A program made the position numbers and the translations under genes. A stretch of DNA of 36,882 nucleotides from Lachnospiraceae bacterium (GTDB lineage: Bacteria; Bacillota; Clostridia; Lachnospirales; Lachnospiraceae): NCBI GenBank assembly GCA_017461685.1, contig JAFTXF010000094.1, forward strand, positions 1 to 36,882. The letters are read 5' to 3'. The notes beneath the pieces are model-generated. The model saw only the letters and a program-made list of their open reading frames with translations. It made no database searches and was not told where the DNA came from. Below, piece after piece: positions 2,474 to 22,700 of this stretch (the stretch's first letter is position 1; each line of letters opens with the position of its first letter).

Positions 2474-2568
2474 CAAAAACACCTTATCGCAAAATCAGCC
2501 CGTCTCAAAATCAGCTCACTACAAATCAATTTTTTACAAAATTAATTTATTACAAAATCAGCACTTGC
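2474..2568. repeat. six tandem ~16-bp periodic units carrying CAAAATCAG-like motif
   Basis: CAAAA(T/A)CA(G) begins at 2474, 2490, 2506, 2522, 2537 and 2553 (spacing 16,16,16,15,16). Exact CAAAATCAG occurs at 2490, 2506 and 2553. The array lies in the argF-stop/birA-start spacer. Confidence 0.5.
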
Positions 2569-3556
2569 TCTTTGGCAAAGTAGCCGCCATAATCGCCTTA
2601 ATGGTGTGCATACGGTTCTCTGCCTCTTCAAATACTTTTGACTGAGGTGACTCAAATACCTCATTGGTAACTTCCATCTCTCTGATTCCAAACTTCTCTG
2701 CAATCAACGCGCCTACCTTCGTCTTTACGTCATGGAATGCAGGCAGGCAGTGCATAAAGATAGCATTTGCATCTGCATTGGCCATAGCAGCCGCATTGAC
2801 CTGATATGGGTAAAGATGTCTGATACGCTCTTCCCAAATCTCGTCCGGCTCACCCATAGATACCCAGACATCTGTGTAAATAACATCTGCGCCCGTTGTG
2901 CCTTCCTTCACATCCTCCGTCAGGGTAATGGTAGCCCCTGTCTCCTTAGCAATGGCACGGCACTCTGCCACCAAAGCTGCATCCGGAAAATAATTACGAT
3001 TGGTGCAAGCGGTAAAATGCATACCCATCTTTGCACAAACTACCATCAGAGAATTACCCATATTGTAACGGGCATCGCCCATATAGGTAAATTTAATCCC
3101 CTTTAAATAACCGAAATTCTCTCGAATTGTCAATAAATCTGCCAACATCTGGGTCGGATGAAACTCATTGGTCAAGCCGTTCCATACCGGCACCTTGGAA
3201 TACTTGGCAATCTCTTCTACCTTGGCCTGTTCAAAACCGCGGTACTCGATGCCGTCAAACATACCGCTTAATACACGTGCTGTATCCGCAATACTTTCCT
3301 TCTTGCCGATCTGAGAGCTCACCGGATCCAGATAAGTAGTGCCCATACCCAAGTCGTGGGCAGCCACTTCAAAGGCACAACGCGTTCTGGTACTGGTCTT
3401 TTCGAAAATAAGTGCAATGTTCTTGCCCTTATATTCATCCACCAGAATGCCCTGTTTCTTCTTTTCCTTATACTCTGCAGCCAAATCAACTAAATACGTA
3501 ATCTCCTCGGCGGTAAAATCCAATAACTTTAAAAAATGACGTCCCTGTAAATTCAT
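2558..3556 (-). CDS. argF: ornithine carbamoyltransferase
   Basis: STRTRCAFE carbamoyl-phosphate motif, HPTQ and HCLPAFH ornithine-binding motif; 332 aa. GGGAGGAG RBS 7 nt upstream of the ATG. Confidence 0.9.
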
Positions 3557-3586: not shown

Positions 3587-3791
3587 TAGGCGTTTGCGAA
3601 ACTCGATGGCTGCCGGCGGAAGTGATATATATTCCGGTAGAGGGGCCTTGAAAAGCGCCGGTCCTTAGCGAAGCAAGGTGATAACCGCAGTCTGAGCTTA
3701 GTACCGCTGCAGCTTTTCACGGAGCGGGAGCGTCCCCGAGACAGAATATATATCACTTCCGCCGGCAGCCACCGAGTTTCGCAAACGCCTA
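3587..3791. repeat. long-stem structured element, copy A (candidate ncRNA or MITE-like stem-loop repeat)
   Basis: Arms 3587-3634 and 3744-3791 are complementary at 47 of 48 positions. The core 3642-3737 is 81 percent identical to 10141-10236. Confidence 0.75.
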
Positions 3792-3858
3792 TGATTAGGT
3801 AATTCCCGAGGTCGTACCATTGGATTTCGGAATCGCCTGTTCGTATACTTTATATACT

Positions 3859-4089: not shown

Positions 4090-4716
4090 ATGCAGAACAT
4101 AGTAATTACAATTGCGAGACAGTACGGTAGTGGCGGTAGATTAATAGGCAAGATGCTTTCAGAAGAGTTGGGCATTCCTTACTATGACAGACAGCTTTTG
4201 CAATTAGCCAGTGATGACAGCGGTATTAACGAGAAGCTTTTTGCAAATGCAGATGAAAAGGTCAAGGCTACTTCACTTTTTAGAATTGCCAAAAAGGTAT
4301 ATTCTGGGGAACTGATTCCGCCGGACAGAGATGATTTTGTGTCTAATGATAATTTATTTAATTATCAGGCCAAGATTATTAAAGAACTTGCAGAAGAAGA
4401 TTCCTGCATTATTATCGGTCGTTGTGCAGATTTTGTATTGAAGGATTATCCAAATGTCATCAGCGTGTTTATTCATGCAGATGAAGAACAGTGTGCAGCA
4501 CGTATCAGAGAAATCCGTCGTATGGAGCCAAAGGACTTAAAAAAGCACATGGCTGATGTAGACAAGCGCAGAGGTACATATTACAAGTACTATACAGGCA
4601 ATGACTGGGCGGATGCCAGAAATTATGACCTGTGTCTGGACAGCGGCAAGATTGGCTACAGAGGCTGCGTGGAGGCCATTAAAAAACAAATTGAACTGAG
4701 ATTTGGTGAGAAGTAA
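4090..4716 (+). CDS. cytidylate kinase-like family ATPase
   Basis: The N-terminus IVITIARQYGSGGRLIGKMLSEELGIPYYDRQLL is characteristic of the cytidylate_kin2-type family. AGGAGG RBS. Confidence 0.75.
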   Translation: MQNIVITIARQYGSGGRLIGKMLSEELGIPYYDRQLLQLASDDSGINEKLFANADEKVKATSLFRIAKKVYSGELIPPDRDDFVSNDNLFNYQAKIIKELAEEDSCIIIGRCADFVLKDYPNVISVFIHADEEQCAARIREIRRMEPKDLKKHMADVDKRRGTYYKYYTGNDWADARNYDLCLDSGKIGYRGCVEAIKKQIELRFGEK

Positions 4717-8516: not shown

Positions 8517-10079
8517 ATGAAACTGAACACAAATTTAACTTATTTACTGAAGAGTTTAGAATATACAGTTTTGCAGGGGAATGTGGAAGGTGAGGTTACC
8601 GCTGTAGTGAATGATTCCCGCAAGGTATGCCCGGGATGCTTGTTTATCTGCATTTCAGGTGCTGTTTTTGACGGCCACGCATATGCGGGAGAGGTGGCAG
8701 ACAAGGGAGCAAAGGTACTGATTGTTGAAAAGCCTGTGGAGGTACCAGAGGATGTCACAGTCATTCAGGTGGCAGATACCCGTTATGCCATGGCTTTTAT
8801 TTCGGCTGCGTACTTTGACCATCCGGCAGAAAAGCTAAAGACCATTGGTATTACCGGTACAAAAGGCAAGACTACCACAGCGTGTCTGGTGAAGGCTATT
8901 TTAGAGAATACCGGTTTAAAGGTAGGATTGATTGGAACCATTGAAACGATTATCGGCGACAGACATATTCCTGCTGCCAATACTACACCGGAATCTTATA
9001 CTTTACAGCAGTATTTTGCAGAGATGGTGGAAGCAGGTCTGGATGCAGTCGTTATGGAAGTGTCCAGTCAGGCACTTATGCTTCACAGAACCCAGGGGTT
9101 TATATTTGATTATGGTATTTTTACGAATCTGGAGCCGGACCACATCGGACCGGCTGAGCATGAGAGCTTTGAGGAGTATTTAGCATGTAAGGGGCGTTTG
9201 TTTAAGCAGTGCCGGGTAGGCATTGTCAACGGGGATGACAGTCATGTGAATGAAGTGATTGCCGGACATACCTGCAGTATTGAGCGCTACGGCTTTGGTG
9301 ATGCCAATGATTTACAGGCGGTGAATGCCCGTCTTGTGAAGACACCGGGCCGTCTGGGAGCCGCTTTTGAGGTGGTGATTCGCCAGCCGGGACGGGTGAT
9401 GGGTGAGAAAGTTAAAAGCTATTTAAAAGGGAGCTGCAATCAGAGAGAAATTCCGGCAGATTCCTATATTCTGTCCGCACAGATTGCATCTCCGGGCAGA
9501 TTCAGTATATATAATGCCATGACTGCCATTGCCATTTGTCTGCACTTTGGTGCCGGTCAGGATGCCATCAGGCAAGCACTTTTAGAGGCCAAGGTGAAGG
9601 GACGAATCGAGATGGTGCCGGTTTCTGACGATTTTACATTGATGATTGATTATGCACACAATGCTATGTCTTTGGTGAGCCTGCTTACTACCTTAAAGGA
9701 GTATGAGCCGAACCGCCTGGTTTGTCTGTTTGGCTGCGGAGGCAATCGCTCCAAGCTTCGCCGTTATGAAATGGGCGAGGTCAGCGGCAGACTGGCAGAT
9801 TTGACAATTATTACGTCAGACAATCCACGCTTTGAGAAGCCTCAGGATATTATAGACGATATCAAGGTCGGAATCGCCAAAACTGACGGCGCATATGTGG
9901 AGATTTGTGACCGTAAGGAAGCCATTTGCTATGCTATAAAGCATGGCCAGCCGGGGGATATTATCGTGTTAGCCGGCAAGGGGCATGAGGATTATCAGGA
10001 GATTGAGGGCGTGAAGCATCCAATGGATGAGCGCGTGCTGATTACAGAAGTCCTTACGGAAGAGAATATGTGTAAATAG
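8517..10079 (+). CDS. murE: UDP-N-acetylmuramoyl-L-alanyl-D-glutamate--2,6-diaminopimelate ligase
   Basis: GITGTKGKTTT P-loop and DNPR motif (the meso-DAP-adding type); 520 aa. An apparent ~25-30 aa extra segment lies around residues 288-318. Confidence 0.85.
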   Translation: MKLNTNLTYLLKSLEYTVLQGNVEGEVTAVVNDSRKVCPGCLFICISGAVFDGHAYAGEVADKGAKVLIVEKPVEVPEDVTVIQVADTRYAMAFISAAYFDHPAEKLKTIGITGTKGKTTTACLVKAILENTGLKVGLIGTIETIIGDRHIPAANTTPESYTLQQYFAEMVEAGLDAVVMEVSSQALMLHRTQGFIFDYGIFTNLEPDHIGPAEHESFEEYLACKGRLFKQCRVGIVNGDDSHVNEVIAGHTCSIERYGFGDANDLQAVNARLVKTPGRLGAAFEVVIRQPGRVMGEKVKSYLKGSCNQREIPADSYILSAQIASPGRFSIYNAMTAIAICLHFGAGQDAIRQALLEAKVKGRIEMVPVSDDFTLMIDYAHNAMSLVSLLTTLKEYEPNRLVCLFGCGGNRSKLRRYEMGEVSGRLADLTIITSDNPRFEKPQDIIDDIKVGIAKTDGAYVEICDRKEAICYAIKHGQPGDIIVLAGKGHEDYQEIEGVKHPMDERVLITEVLTEENMCK

Positions 10080-10083
10080 TTAT

Positions 10084-10288
10084 GGTAAGGGATTGTGGAA
10101 CCTGACAGCAGCCTGCGGTTGCAATATATGTTCTGGCTGAAGGGCCTTGAAAAACGTCGGTCCTTAGCAAAGCAAGGTGGCAGCCGCAGCCTGAGCTTAG
10201 TACCGTTACGTATTTTCATGGAGTGAGAACGTCCCTGAAGCAGAACATATATTGCAACCGCAGGCTGCCGACAGGTTCCGCACTTACC
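10084..10288. repeat. long-stem structured element, copy B
   Basis: Arms 10097-10135 / 10241-10279 pair at 37 of 39 positions. There is an outer helix 10084-10089 / 10283-10288. The core 10141-10236 is homologous to copy A, in the same orientation. Confidence 0.75.
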
Positions 10289-10314
10289 CGGGAAAAAATC
10301 AGAAAGGAGAGGGT

Positions 10315-12543
10315 ATGGAAATTTATGCAGACATCATTGTAGACATTACCCATGAAAAATTAGACCGCCCTTTCCAATACCGGATTCCGGAGGCGCTTTC
10401 GGAGGAGGTCACGGTAGGATGTCAGGTGATAGTACCGTTCGGTGCTGCCAATAAAATCATCAGTGGTTATTGTATTGGTATTAGCTGCGAGACGGATTTT
10501 GACCCGGCCAAAATCAAAGATATTGTCTCCGTAAAGGAAGGCAGTACCACCATGGAAAGCCGGGAGATTCTGTTGGCAGATTTTATCAAGCGCCGCTATG
10601 GCGTGACCATGATTCAGGCATTAAAGACGGTTCTGCTGGTGAAGCATACGGTAAAGGCTATTGTCAAAAAGAGCATTTGCCGTGGTAAGCCGCTTAAAGA
10701 ACTGCAAAGCTACTACGATACCATCAAGGAAAAGGGCAATCAAAGAGCCAAAGCCAGATTGTTGGAAGCACTTTTAGACAGGGAAGAGATTCCACTGGAG
10801 GAGGTAAACCATAAGCTGGAAATCGGTGCCGGTACGATAAAGCTTCTAGAAGAAAGCGGTTATATTGCACTGAAAACCGAAAATCAATACCGAGATCCTG
10901 TGCATATGGAACATATACAGCAGGAGGGCTTTGCATTAAGTGCGGAGCAGCAGCATATTGTAGATGTCATTATCGGAGCGCTTGATGACTGTGGCAAATA
11001 TTACATTCACGGCATTACAGGAAGCGGCAAGACAGCTGTTTATATAGAATTAATTGAGGAAATACTGAAAAGAGGACGGCAGGCGATAGTGCTGATACCG
11101 GAGATTTCTCTCACCTATCAGACTTTAAAGAGGTTTTACGCCAGATTTGGCAGCAAGGTATCGGTGATGAATTCTACCCTGTCCGCAGGCGAAAAATACG
11201 ACCAGATGCAAAGAGCCATGAACGGTGACATTCAGGTAATTATCGGTCCTCGCTCAGCTTTATTTACACCATTTCCAAATCTGGGACTGGTGATTATAGA
11301 CGAAGAGCACGAGCCATCTTATAAGTCAGAGCAAAGTCCCAAGTATCATGCCAGAGAGGTGGCGGAGGAGGTTGCAAGGCTGAGCGGTGCCAGTTTGGTA
11401 TTTGGCAGTGCCACTCCTTCTATGGAAGCTTATCAGCAGGTAAAACAGGGGCGGTTTCAACTTTTTAAATTAGAAAAGCGTCTCACAGGAGGTGCTCTTC
11501 CAAGGGTTGAGATCGTAGACCTGAGGGAAGAATTGAGAAATGGAAACCGCAGTATTTTCAGCCTGAGCCTTCAGCAGAAGATGGCCGAGCGGCTGCAGCG
11601 AAGAGAGCAGTTTATGCTGTTTTTAAACCGAAGAGGGTATTCCGGCTTTATCAGTTGCAGAAGCTGCGGACATGTGATGCGGTGTCCTCACTGTGATGTG
11701 TCTCTTTCAGAGCACCGGGATGGCAGGCTGCATTGTCATTATTGCGGTTACAGTGCCCCGGGCGTGAAGCTTTGTCCGGAGTGCGGTTCCAAATATATTT
11801 TGGGTTTTAAAGTGGGCACCCAGCAAATCGAGGAGAAATTAAAGGAGTTATTTCCTGAGATTCGGGTACTGCGCATGGATGCAGACACCACCAAGACCAA
11901 GGCCAGCTATGAGCAGATTCTATCGGCTTTTGCCGGAGGGCAAGCCGATGTACTGTTAGGAACCCAGATGATTGTTAAAGGGCATGATTTTCCGGGGGTG
12001 ACTTTGGTAGGCGTATTGGCTGCGGATATGTCTTTGGCATTTGGAGATTATAGAAGCGGCGAGAGAACCTTTCAGCTTTTAACCCAGGCGGCAGGCAGAG
12101 CAGGGCGCGGTAAGCTTCCCGGCGAGGTGGTGATTCAGACCTATCAGCCGGAACACTACAGCGTACAGTTTGCGGCAGCTCAGGATTTTGAAGGCTTTTA
12201 TGAGCAGGAGATGGCTTACAGAGAACTGATGCAGTATCCGCCTGCAGGGCATATGATGGCCATTCAGATATTTGGGGAAAAGGAAGCCAGGGTAAAAGCC
12301 CTTGCGGAGGATTTCGGAGATTATCTCAAGGTTTTAACGAAGAACAAACCGATTCAGGTATTGGGGCCGACTGTGGCCGCCATTGCTAAGATAAAAGACA
12401 TTTATCGGTATGTGATTTATGTAAAAGCGGCAAAAACGGAAACACTATTACTATTAAAAAATGCACTGGATGAACGAAAGATAACAATGCATAGCGGGCA
12501 GGAAATCGTGCAATATGATTTTGACCCCGTAAATACATTTTAA
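10315..12543 (+). CDS. priA: primosomal protein N' (replication restart helicase PriA)
   Basis: GITGSGKT Walker A, DEEH box and a Cys-rich zinc region CRSCGHVMRCPHCDVSLSEH...CHYCG...CPECGS. ATG 10315 follows GGAGAGGG; the track start 10252 (TTG) lies inside element B. Confidence 0.85.
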   Translation: MEIYADIIVDITHEKLDRPFQYRIPEALSEEVTVGCQVIVPFGAANKIISGYCIGISCETDFDPAKIKDIVSVKEGSTTMESREILLADFIKRRYGVTMIQALKTVLLVKHTVKAIVKKSICRGKPLKELQSYYDTIKEKGNQRAKARLLEALLDREEIPLEEVNHKLEIGAGTIKLLEESGYIALKTENQYRDPVHMEHIQQEGFALSAEQQHIVDVIIGALDDCGKYYIHGITGSGKTAVYIELIEEILKRGRQAIVLIPEISLTYQTLKRFYARFGSKVSVMNSTLSAGEKYDQMQRAMNGDIQVIIGPRSALFTPFPNLGLVIIDEEHEPSYKSEQSPKYHAREVAEEVARLSGASLVFGSATPSMEAYQQVKQGRFQLFKLEKRLTGGALPRVEIVDLREELRNGNRSIFSLSLQQKMAERLQRREQFMLFLNRRGYSGFISCRSCGHVMRCPHCDVSLSEHRDGRLHCHYCGYSAPGVKLCPECGSKYILGFKVGTQQIEEKLKELFPEIRVLRMDADTTKTKASYEQILSAFAGGQADVLLGTQMIVKGHDFPGVTLVGVLAADMSLAFGDYRSGERTFQLLTQAAGRAGRGKLPGEVVIQTYQPEHYSVQFAAAQDFEGFYEQEMAYRELMQYPPAGHMMAIQIFGEKEARVKALAEDFGDYLKVLTKNKPIQVLGPTVAAIAKIKDIYRYVIYVKAAKTETLLLLKNALDERKITMHSGQEIVQYDFDPVNTF

Positions 12544-20534: not shown

Positions 20535-21431
20535 ATGCAGGAGATGTTTAAAGGTAAAATTACCAAGGGAATTGCAGGATTTTATTATGTGTACATACCC
20601 GGAAAGGGGATGTACGAGTGCAAGGCCAAGGGTATTTTCCGTAAAGATAACGTAAAGCCTCTGGTTGGAGATGATGTTTCCGTACAGGTTCTGTCCGAAG
20701 AGGAAATGACCGGTAATATATGCGAAATATTGCCGAGAAAGAGCAGCCTTATCCGTCCGGCAGTGGCCAATATTGACCAGGCCCTTGTGATATTTGCGAT
20801 TCGCAAGCCGGATGTGAATTTGAATCTGCTGGACCGTTTTCTGATTCAAATGGAGCAGCAGGGACTGGAAACGATTATTTGTTTTAACAAGGCTGATCTG
20901 GAGAATACGGAGGGACCAAGCAGTCAAAAGCTGGCGGAAATTTATTCCAAAGCAGGCTATCGGACATTGGTAGTCAGTGCTACCGAGGATGTCGGCATTG
21001 ACCGGATACTTGCCTGCTTAAAAGGAAAGACTACGACGGTAGCAGGACCAAGCGGCGTGGGCAAGTCTACCCTAATTAACCGGTTGCAGTCCGATACCAG
21101 GATGGAAACCGGCAGCATCAGTACAAAGATTGAGCGCGGCAAGCATACTACCCGCCACAGTCAGCTGATACCGATTTCAGAGGATACCTATATTCTGGAT
21201 ACGCCGGGTTTTAGTTCTCTGTCGGTTTTCGATATGGAGAAGGAGGAACTGGAGGCCTATTACGAGGAATTCCAGGCATTGACTGCAGGCTGCAAGTTTA
21301 CCGGTTGCTCCCATATTCATGAACCGGTGTGCGGTGTAAAGGAGGGGCTGAAAACGGGACAGGTCAGTGCAGAACGCTATGAGAATTACAAGCTGATATA
21401 TAGCGAGCTTGCGCAGCGGAAGAAATATTGA
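20535..21431 (+). CDS. rsgA: ribosome small-subunit-dependent GTPase A
   Basis: Circularly permuted GTPase (NKADL, GPSGVGKST) and a zinc knuckle CKFTGCSHIHEPVCGV. Confidence 0.85.
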   Translation: MQEMFKGKITKGIAGFYYVYIPGKGMYECKAKGIFRKDNVKPLVGDDVSVQVLSEEEMTGNICEILPRKSSLIRPAVANIDQALVIFAIRKPDVNLNLLDRFLIQMEQQGLETIICFNKADLENTEGPSSQKLAEIYSKAGYRTLVVSATEDVGIDRILACLKGKTTTVAGPSGVGKSTLINRLQSDTRMETGSISTKIERGKHTTRHSQLIPISEDTYILDTPGFSSLSVFDMEKEELEAYYEEFQALTAGCKFTGCSHIHEPVCGVKEGLKTGQVSAERYENYKLIYSELAQRKKY

Positions 21432-21503
21432 GTCAAACAGAGGTTAAGGGGCGTATTTTCGCACCACTTTCCGACGATATATCGTCCGTTGCTCCACTTT
21501 ATT

Positions 21504-21621
21504 ACACGGCGAGATTTTTATCAAATTATAGGGGCAGACATATAGGCCGAAAACACGCTCATCGCGAATCATTTTCGGCCTATATGTCTGCCCCTATAAT
21601 TTGACAAAAATCTCGCCATGT
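21504..21621. repeat. 50-bp near-perfect inverted repeat with 18-nt loop
   Basis: Arms 21504-21553 / 21572-21621 pair at 48 of 50 positions. The loop is CACGCTCATCGCGAATCA. Confidence 0.8.
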
Positions 21622-21773
21622 ATTGATAGCCCTTCCATGATTTACCGGTTTATTTTTCCTCACCATTGTGCTAGAATACTCCTTGTAACAAATACGTAAC
21701 AATTCTGTAATAATAACGAAATGAATATACGAGATAGATTGTTACAAAGAATCACAAAGGAGGTATTTTCACA

Positions 21774-22700
21774 ATGAGGAAAATCACATATTTGGCTACA
21801 GCAGCATTAATGGGGGCTACAATCATGGCGACTCCGATGCAGGCGATGGCAGCAAGACCGTTACAGGGGGTAGGTACGAATCGGACAAACATCACAAGTA
21901 TTTTTTCGGGATGCGATGTAATAACGGGAAATTCCAATTTCCTGAAGGATTATCTGGGAAATTGCCAGTGGGGAAATGTACAAATTATTACTATTCCGTG
22001 TTTGCCGGGCAACCAACCGGAAACGGAAGAACCGGGCGCGGAAGACAATAACCAACCTAATAAACCGGACGTGGAGGATGACAATCAGACCAATAAGCCG
22101 GATGTGGAAGACGATAATCAGTCAAATCAGCCGGGTGTAGAGGATAATAATCAGACCAATAAACCGGACGTGGAAGATAATAACCAGACCGGTCAGCCGG
22201 GTGTAGAGGACAATAATCAGACCAATAAGCCGGATGTAGAGGACAACAATCAGTCCAACAAGCCGGGGGTAGAAGACGATAATCAGTCCAACAAGCCGGG
22301 CACAGAGGATTCTGAGCAGTCCATGCATGCTTATGTACTGCGTGTTGTGGAACTGGTAAATGAAGAGCGTGCAAAGGCAGGTTTGAATCCCCTTACCATA
22401 AAAGAAGATGTGACTGAAGCGGCTCAGGTACGTGCAGTGGAGTGTACCACTATGTTCTCTCATACCAGACCGAATGGAACAAGCTTTGTTACGGCACTGA
22501 AGGAGGCAGGTGTCAACTACCGCGGAGCCGGTGAAAATATTGCCTGGGGACAGAAGACTCCGGAACAGGTTATGGAGGCCTGGATGAACAGTTCGGGACA
22601 CCGAGCCAATATCTTGAATGAAAAATACACATCTATTGGTGTGGGTTACTACCAGAACGCATCCGGCGTGAATTACTGGTCACAGTTGTTTACTTATTAA
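21774..22700 (+). CDS. secreted CAP/SCP (YkwD-like) domain protein with an acidic repeat linker
   Basis: Signal-peptide-like N-terminus, an 11-aa repeat block, and a C-terminal CAP motif set (NEERAKAGLNPL...GENIAWGQ...WMNSSGHRANIL...GVGYY). AAAGGAGG RBS. Confidence 0.75.
   Translation: MRKITYLATAALMGATIMATPMQAMAARPLQGVGTNRTNITSIFSGCDVITGNSNFLKDYLGNCQWGNVQIITIPCLPGNQPETEEPGAEDNNQPNKPDVEDDNQTNKPDVEDDNQSNQPGVEDNNQTNKPDVEDNNQTGQPGVEDNNQTNKPDVEDNNQSNKPGVEDDNQSNKPGTEDSEQSMHAYVLRVVELVNEERAKAGLNPLTIKEDVTEAAQVRAVECTTMFSHTRPNGTSFVTALKEAGVNYRGAGENIAWGQKTPEQVMEAWMNSSGHRANILNEKYTSIGVGYYQNASGVNYWSQLFTY
22032..22322 (+). repeat. 33-nt in-frame tandem repeats (about 8.8 units) encoding NKPDVEDDNQT-like units
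   Basis: Units start at 22059, 22092, 22125, 22158, 22191, 22224, 22257 and 22290, with a partial unit from 22032. Confidence 0.85.

Follow-up and report, generated by a model that had tools for sequence, protein, structure and literature searches.

Two copies, A and B, of a multicopy mobile repeat with target-site duplications lie within the 36,882-nucleotide stretch of Lachnospiraceae DNA analyzed here (the window), a property that had been overlooked in a preliminary description of the pair. We consider it probable, at roughly 70%, that A and B represent a non-autonomous MITE-like repeat in which the core carries a selected fold and the arms form a DNA palindrome. The element, which measures ~205 bp and carries no transposase gene, has spread through ruminant-gut Lachnospiraceae genomes and constitutes a previously undescribed family; nothing specific on a MITE or an RNA of such a kind in Lachnospiraceae or Clostridia was found in the literature. 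Small size, conserved terminal inverted repeats (TIRs), target-site duplications (TSDs), multicopy dispersal, and presence/absence differences were all observed, and the element is therefore a MITE by the operational definition used for bacteria, bar the cognate transposase.

Copy A (3587..3791, plus strand) is a complete subfamily 1 element, recognized by its inverted repeat and by a covariance-model match at 3639-3740 (117 bits), with argF (2558-3556, minus strand) on its left and a cytidylate-kinase-like gene (4090-4716, plus strand) on its right. Its two 48-nt arms (3587..3634 and 3744..3791, 109 nt apart) are complementary at 47 of 48 positions (98%), the sole mismatch being an A.C at 3606/3772, and the terminal 16 nt of the left arm (TAGGCGTTTGCGAAAC) are the conserved family terminus. 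Copy B (10084..10290, plus strand) belongs to subfamily 2 and has diverged termini; it is flanked by a Mur-ligase gene (8517-10079) on one side and by priA (10315-12543) on the other, both of them likewise on the plus strand. The outer part of its left arm (10086..10133) is mismatched with the right arm (10243..10290), while 10111-10133 and about 8 positions further out pair perfectly; inverted-repeat detection placed the arms of B at 10094-10148 and 10228-10282 (55 nt, 84% complementary). No further copies were present in the window. Measured against shuffles, folds of the whole element gave z-scores of -14.3 (A) and -11.5 (B) on the plus strand and -14.7 and -11.8 on the minus strand, values that are uninformative on which strand matters because the element is a palindrome. 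An exact-protein look-up of the Mur ligase (520 aa) returned no record.

The preliminary description had listed 18 differences between the 96-nt cores of A and B, and recomputation (A = 3641+p, B = 10140+p) reproduced every one of them, at p = 1, 14, 17, 29, 40, 41, 43, 50, 66, 68, 70, 71, 72, 79, 84, 86, 89, and 96. It had also noted that the left arms differ at 6 positions of the inner 23 bp (A 3612-3634 versus B 10111-10133) and that each difference is mirrored in the opposite arm; this was confirmed, and at all 6 positions both copies remain Watson-Crick paired. The outer stem halves are indeed more diverged; A has one A.C mismatch there and B has several. The pattern of differences is non-random, far beyond chance. 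However, A versus B compares two subfamilies and hence represents few independent events, and the main covariation test was carried out on 34 copies beyond A and B.

These copies were collected by several routes. A 19-nt core pattern retrieved 28 loci from a species-representative genome collection, 26 of which were true copies, located in the Lachnospiraceae MAGs JAZRLF (about 20), JAZRRW (5), and JAZQUB (1). A profile search with nhmmer, followed by a covariance model, on the same loci yielded more divergent copies, giving 36 in total, and at least 22 copies were found in JAZRLF. A second, differently designed pattern applied to JGI metagenomes returned two distant relatives only, L035 and L036. 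In three gut metagenomes that contain this genome, contig depth over the core was 288-865 versus 4-9 in the single-copy flanks, corresponding to an excess of 70-160x over the element, and contigs break inside the element. The sequencing runs containing element sequence were DNA metagenomes only. Viral contigs scanned with two core patterns gave only chance matches in coding sequence, and BLAST against plasmids and phages gave no match to the element.

The copies fall into several types that have the core in common. In the main type, alpha, the arms are those of the window; in the beta type, the same core is flanked by arms of ~90 nt; and the gamma and delta types combine it with other arms, which in one delta copy are perfect (47/47). 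In L036, a closing stem of only 24 bp encloses the core; with A5 on one side and U5 on the other, it resembles a terminator and follows the 3' end of a gene on the same strand. The core occurs with at least four unrelated arm sets; unrelated arms were seen in JAZRRW, JAZQUB, L035, and L036. In JAZRRW and JAZQUB, cores of different types also occur two by two in divergent orientation, always 224-234 nt apart and with a hairpin midway between them (L032 1298-1738, L034 5592-6022, L015 6170-6543, and L013 6545-6944). The flanking and central sequences of these pairs are common to the JAZRRW loci, which suggests that the pairs may be part of a larger composite repeat of ~700 bp.

Evidence for past or present mobility comes from the ends of the element. 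Exact direct repeats of 8-12 bp, different at each site, abut the termini of at least 9 alpha copies (for example, ATAAAAGCAAT, TACCTATATGTT, TTGATTTGTAA, TTAAGACGAACA, and TCTCTCTTAA). No recognizable duplication was seen at A or B themselves, and no clear TSDs or shared termini were found for the beta, gamma, and delta types, L035, or L036. Within the alpha arms, 16 nt at the terminus (TAGGCRTTTGCGAAAC) and 18 nt at the inner end are conserved, and the 14 nt between them are hypervariable. Two copies, L011 and L028, have one peculiar, partly non-complementary arm pair in common and differ in their duplications. An element with imperfect arms therefore still transposed, and perfect arm pairing is neither needed for insertion nor restored by it.

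Occupied and empty sites were found at the priA locus. In JAZRLF (L017; PriA 90% identical to that of the window), an ortholog of copy B is present with the same flanks. At L044/45 (PriA 88%), only the outer arms are left, joined by an internal deletion, and at L046 (PriA 86%), a subfamily-1-like core with a canonical terminus occupies the same site. L047 (PriA 83%) and L048/49 (PriA 82%) are without the element. L048 and L049 do contain, ~40-70 nt upstream of priA, the sequence GGCGAGTTTGTGAAACTCC, whose similarity to the family terminus GGCGTTTGCGAAACTC suggests a possible solo remnant. Between related genomes, the element has thus been gained, lost, and internally deleted. The subfamily swap at L046, together with the identity between B and its L017 ortholog (90% in the element versus ~83% in the flanking coding DNA), suggests that conversion between copies may also take place. 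The longest priA reading frame of the window (763 aa, from a TTG at 10252) begins within element B, and the true start is likely the ATG at 10315, which is preceded by a GGAG site. At least one PriA homolog is called longer (P0002, 770 aa), its called start lying in an element remnant far upstream of the conserved GGAGAGGGTATG start.

Copy A sits at a strain-variable junction. Strain L037 diverges from the window exactly at the left terminus of A (3586/3587), and strain L039 diverges at 3842/3843, 51 nt beyond the right terminus; these strains encode identical argF or cytidylate-kinase-like proteins. A 460-aa gene in the alternative allele of the locus (L039) was considered as a transposase and rejected, as it has no Pfam domain. 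Neither an autonomous insertion sequence with matching termini nor solo arms were found in the ~250 kb of loci examined.

The core is predicted to fold, on the plus strand, into a rod of five helices and a small GNRA-capped hairpin (A, 3639..3740; B, 10138..10239). The same fold was obtained with RNAalifold (26 cores), as the minimum free energy structure of the core of A alone, and from the covariance-model alignment, and pair counts were also taken into account. Helix P1 (A, 3642-3645/3734-3737; B, 10141-10144/10233-10236) closes the core. P2 (A, 3646-3654/3714-3722; B, 10145-10153/10213-10221) and P3 (A, 3655-3662/3703-3713; B, 10154-10161/10202-10212) together make up a long helix interrupted by two bulges, a single A and CU. 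P4 (A, 3664-3674/3690-3701; B, 10163-10173/10189-10200) consists of the invariant strands UCCUURGCGA and GAGCUUAGUA, with U.U, C.U, and tandem G.A pairs, the last of which (GCGA/GAGC) are invariant across copies. P5 (A, 3677-3679/3684-3686; B, 10176-10178/10183-10185) forms the apical hairpin, which varies between copies and borders an AA/GNA internal loop. P6 (A, 3724-3731; B, 10223-10230) is an unpartnered 2-bp hairpin in the 3' strand, and its loop is GNRA in nearly all complete copies (GGGA, GAGA, GGAA, GAAA, or GCAA, with one UGGA exception). The part of the 3' strand that had previously been taken for a purine-rich single strand contains this hairpin. Pairs 1/96 and 17/68 of the preliminary description, as well as its sliding bulged A (14-15 with 70-72), hold across the family copies. 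In contrast, the bases proposed to pair at 40/50 and 41/49 belong to the loop or bulge around P5 (GGY/RCC), a helix with better support in the family, and helix 39-41/49-51 was dropped in its favor.

In the distant homolog L035 (2060-2400), which lies divergent from argS, ~100 nt have been inserted where the 3' strand of P3 is followed by that of P2, and the closing stem measures 23 bp. In copy L019 (1244-1566), 83 nt with 8-bp inverted ends (AAGTCGGA...TCCGACTT) split the 3' strand of P4 behind GTAC, and the element restarts mid-arm at the contig end; this could be either a nested insertion or an assembly artefact.

Across the 36 copies, 95.1% of core cells are paired and 20 of the 33 pairs have changed on both sides, counts that come from an alignment fitted to the model. 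The compensatory pairing first read from A and B is thereby borne out in the core with more homologs. Cells with double changes numbered 87 versus 19 expected, none of 500 shuffles reached any of the main core-pairing measures, and slid controls gave only 32-46% paired cells and 2-5 double-change pairs. Of the copies, 26 had been retrieved through a sequence identical to the 5' strand of P4. The covariation seen in P4 and P5 derives from copies obtained by other routes. In P4, GAAG/CUGA is replaced by GAGAC/GUCGA with the G.A pair kept, and in P5, GGC/GCC is replaced by GGU/ACC, AGC/GCU, GGUG/CACC, GGCAU/AUGCC, or CC/GG. Folded by itself, the core has unremarkable thermodynamic z-scores (-0.8 to -2.2). 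Core sequence conservation is far above that of the arms. The only long reading frame of the element, which crosses core and left arm on the minus strand (47 codons in A), was discarded: changes of 1-2 nt in the length of the P5 loop, which varies by 1-3 nt between copies, break it.

Collectively, these comparisons strongly support selection on a single-strand fold in the core. Homogenization of one side by the other would have erased the invariant tandem G.A and U.U pairs, the bulges, and the unpartnered GNRA hairpin. Furthermore, the fold is kept by compensatory change between elements with unrelated arms, which identifies the fold as the selected unit. The evidence that the plus strand is the folded strand is good but not airtight. 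The plus-strand core is predicted to be 2.6-5.3 kcal/mol more stable than the minus-strand core in 4 of 4 types, and the GNRA/GNNA loops and G.A pairs are located on the plus strand; the strand call rests mainly on these motifs and on the energy difference, because G.U exceeds A.C by only 12 to 6 in the core (two bulge-slide pairs excluded). The acting form of the core may be either RNA or extruded or replicative single-stranded DNA, with RNA slightly ahead.

A further reading, less likely than not but realistic, is that the core is a new structured nucleic-acid class and the functional heart of the replicator, joined repeatedly to various long palindromic arms. As such, it could be an RNA that processes itself or recruits proteins, or else a folded-DNA module by which a structure-specific transposase recognizes the element. 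An unlikely but serious alternative to the MITE-like repeat regards the core as a functional RNA gene in its own right, belonging to a new class (catalytic, protein-binding, or mobility-guiding), and as the actual selected or selfish unit. The arms would then be interchangeable closing or processing stems, for example, terminators or substrates of RNase III, with the MITE form as one vehicle among others. The occurrence of the same core with unrelated arms (JAZRRW, JAZQUB, L035, and L036) speaks for such a gene, as do the terminator-like closing stem of L036, the tertiary-type motifs (GNRA loop, tandem G.A, and conserved AA/GNA internal loop), and the conservation of the orthologous copy above the level of coding DNA. 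The antisense bias of copies in operons could likewise reflect the purging of sense insertions carrying an active RNA. No Rfam family, self-cleaving ribozymes, 6S, SRP, Y RNA, and riboswitches included, matches the element: Rfam 15 at gathering score gave no match in the window, and permissive searches turned up nothing relevant, whether around A and B (E<=10) or in four loci that contain divergent types (E<=5). ARAGORN called no tRNA or tmRNA. However, the structural motifs fit folded single-stranded DNA equally well, promoter scans gave nothing convincing, and most copies are antisense to host transcription, contrary to simple co-transcription of the plus strand. Moreover, the element is dispensable at priA, where it is deleted in L044/45 and absent from L047-49.

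The arms evolve differently from the core. In 33 copies, the arm pairs comprise 1351 Watson-Crick pairs, 53 G.U pairs, 60 A.C mismatches, 108 transversion mismatches, and 22 gaps. Approximately 14% are therefore non-paired, without G.U or strand bias, which indicates two DNA arms that decay independently rather than selection at the RNA level. The mismatch spectrum looks like the neutral decay of a DNA palindrome, and independent arm decay is consistent with only some of the target duplications remaining perfect. Despite this decay, the arms of one copy match each other far better than they match the arms of other copies. Watson-Crick pairing reaches 88% in the inner 18 nt, versus 72% with shuffled partners, and 73.5% in the middle arm segment, versus 44% when shuffled, with 3.4 pair types per column.

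Some changes have occurred symmetrically in both arms. Between B and its L017 ortholog, three clustered transversions (GCCGGAGC to GCGGTTGC) are mirror-imaged on both arms and create a local TTGCAA palindrome in B; elsewhere, the L017 arms contain 8 mismatches. In L031, a novel 14-nt block lies inside inner arms that are perfect (27/27), beside badly decayed outer arms. These symmetric blocks favor symmetrization at the DNA level over stepwise compensatory selection as their probable origin. Template-switch mutagenesis at quasipalindromes (Ripley 1982; Lovett laboratory) reportedly converts imperfect inverted repeats into perfect ones in a single multi-base step, and would fit both the symmetric triple transversion of B and the perfect inner arms of L031. 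It is, however, a mutational mechanism and not an element family.

The preliminary description had left open whether selection on a folded RNA or single-stranded DNA, or arm-to-arm homogenization, underlies the matched changes. With the enlarged family, each applies to one part of the element: selection is upheld for the core by the 36-copy pair statistics but not for the arms, and homogenization is the better reading for the arms but not for the core, whose asymmetric features are invariant. The uncompensated substitutions that had been named as evidence against a selected structure are found in the arms. It is improbable that the whole element is a DNA quasi-palindrome kept by template switching or hairpin repair with no selected fold. 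The lack of G.U bias and the frequent transversion mismatches in the arms are what such a process would leave, as are the symmetric multi-base changes, and the fold is a rod centered on the P5 loop. Against it, no variation between types is seen in the tandem G.A, U.U, and C.U pairs, in the two bulges (CU and A), or in the unpartnered 12-nt GNRA hairpin, and the core is 95% paired versus 71-88% in the arms, in addition to being far more conserved in sequence.

Copies of the alpha type occupy short intergenic regions (45-95 nt) in a preferred orientation. Of 22 alpha copies, 19 have an opposite-strand gene next to the left (5') end; the start codon of this gene lies <50 nt from the left end in 13, and the left end falls 12-22 nt upstream of the Shine-Dalgarno sequence of the adjacent gene. 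Between co-directional genes, 10 copies are antisense and 3 are sense, two of the latter being B and its L017 ortholog. This bias could be produced by the removal of sense insertions through purging, by an outward promoter, or by insertion coupled to replication.

The second of these options would make the element a mobile promoter or insulator, in which the palindrome blocks read-through and an outward promoter at the left end restarts the adjacent gene. An outward promoter would explain why the left end is found just upstream of Shine-Dalgarno sequences and near opposite-strand starts, and functional promoters are carried by Correia elements (PMC3184786). At the left end of A, a promoter scan did detect a hybrid site (TTCGCA-17-TATAAT, 10/12), but it was rejected because its transcription start would fall inside the ribosome-binding site, and the scan found nothing at B. 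An internal minus-strand candidate (TTCAAG-17-TATATT) scores just 8/12, below the scan threshold, and other copies show no consistent -10 element at a fixed distance. The proximity to ribosome-binding sites is, moreover, largely forced by the short intergenic space, and the covarying fold would be left unexplained. We therefore regard this explanation as quite improbable. A terminator-like site spanning A or B was not found, the only candidate being a chance 6-bp mini-hairpin in the arms of B. An intrinsic terminator was likewise rejected, there being no G+C-rich hairpin with a U tract spanning either copy.

Replication-coupled insertion is a feature of the transposition of single-stranded DNA, and orientation bias is a known by-product of it where gene-strand bias is strong (IS608/ISDra2). 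A REPIN-like hairpin, moved as single-stranded DNA by a single-copy HUH/Y1 transposase (RAYT or IS200/IS605 type) with the fold as its recognition structure, would accommodate the orientation bias relative to neighboring genes and the conservation of structure, rather than arm sequence, between types. The window element resembles REPINs in being a palindromic non-autonomous repeat with long persistence in lineages. To our knowledge, however, transposition of IS200/IS605 elements and REPINs creates no target-site duplications, and 8-12-bp duplications flank 9 copies here. If genes are co-oriented with replication, the plus strand would be the leading-strand template, opposite to the IS608 rule. 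REPINs are also shorter (~70-100 bp), consist of two REP units without a structured asymmetric core, and are tied to a Y1 transposase. By comparison, the arms of the window element are continuous 48-bp repeats without internal REP-like hairpins; no GTAG-hairpin units of the REP type were present, and no RAYT gene was seen in the examined loci. The element does form an inverted doublet with compensatory changes in its arms, and such changes across the hairpin are common in REPINs (PMC3116915). Identity with REPINs is nevertheless ruled out by the duplications, the lack of REP units, and the large asymmetric core of 100 nt, and the broader REPIN-like mechanism appears very doubtful.

A gene-specific cis-regulatory RNA (a leader or riboswitch) of priA or argF is hardly credible. 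In its favor, B shares the strand of priA, sits 25 nt ahead of the start of this gene, and has been retained in a sister species. However, dozens of copies with target-site duplications adjoin unrelated genes, mostly in antisense, close relatives lack the element at priA or have a deleted version of it, and there is no Rfam match; the distribution of copies already contradicts this reading. An integron attC site was also rejected, as the copies are single and dispersed, have different duplications, and lie beside housekeeping genes.

For the MITE-like repeat, which we prefer, the following course of events may be envisaged. A transposase encoded elsewhere would bind the termini and make staggered cuts; given the TIRs and TSDs, it is most likely of the DDE type. 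The core fold could serve as a binding or docking platform for the propagation or processing of the element. Each lineage carries its own arm sequence, and after insertion both arms decay independently, with occasional re-symmetrization by template switching, arm-to-arm conversion, or conversion from other copies. Decay combined with re-symmetrization would explain why A and B, which are unusually intact, differ only by mirrored changes.

Among known systems, classical MITEs (Correia/NEMIS, ERIC, RUP, and Nezha) share with the window family their small size, TIRs, TSDs, intergenic location, multiple copies, and lack of a transposase gene. They differ in having short TIRs (~16-30 bp) and fixed short duplications (often TA), in contrast to the long near-perfect arms, the variable 8-12-bp duplications, and the multi-helix core across unrelated arms found here. 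We know of no classical MITE interior with a covarying multi-helix fold across families with different TIRs. MITEs can fold into long stem-loops at the RNA level and carry functional motifs, and bcr1 of the Bacillus cereus group, a MITE-like repeat of ~155 bp, is flanked by direct repeats, is transcribed, and keeps its fold by compensatory changes (PMC3184786). Compared by description rather than by sequence, bcr1 and the window element are both intergenic repeats of Firmicutes with flanking direct repeats, a compensated fold, and a distribution that is not conserved between relatives, and for bcr1 transcription has been shown. The direct repeats of bcr1 are 5 bp versus 8-12 bp, and the window family has far longer, near-perfect arms (48 to ~95 bp) and a core with GNRA and tandem G.A motifs that recurs with unrelated arms.

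Other repeats are also present in the window. A second, unrelated palindrome (21503-21622), located between the ORFs at 20535-21431 and 21774-22700, has 51-nt arms that are 96% complementary and an 18-nt loop. Its inner hairpin (~21542-21589, GGCCGAAAA...TTTTCGGCC) shows an 8-16x excess depth in the same gut metagenomes, which points to a likewise repeated, terminator-like unit. Inside the ORF at 21774-22700, seven tandem 33-nt copies (21997-22326, 63-80% identity) imply an 11-residue protein repeat.

For the genomes that carry it, the repeat has practical consequences. It fragments metagenome assemblies of these Lachnospiraceae, whose contigs end inside the element, and its position directly upstream of many genes creates an annotation issue, as exemplified by the over-extended priA frames that start in B. 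More generally, few small bacterial palindromic repeats have a demonstrably selected internal fold. The 205-bp unit is a natural experiment in which the core evolves like a structured RNA and the arms evolve like a decaying, re-symmetrized DNA palindrome. Should the core turn out to be transcribed and active, the abundant Lachnospiraceae of the rumen would gain an RNA family outside present classifications, and RNA structure would become connected with how MITEs move or are domesticated.
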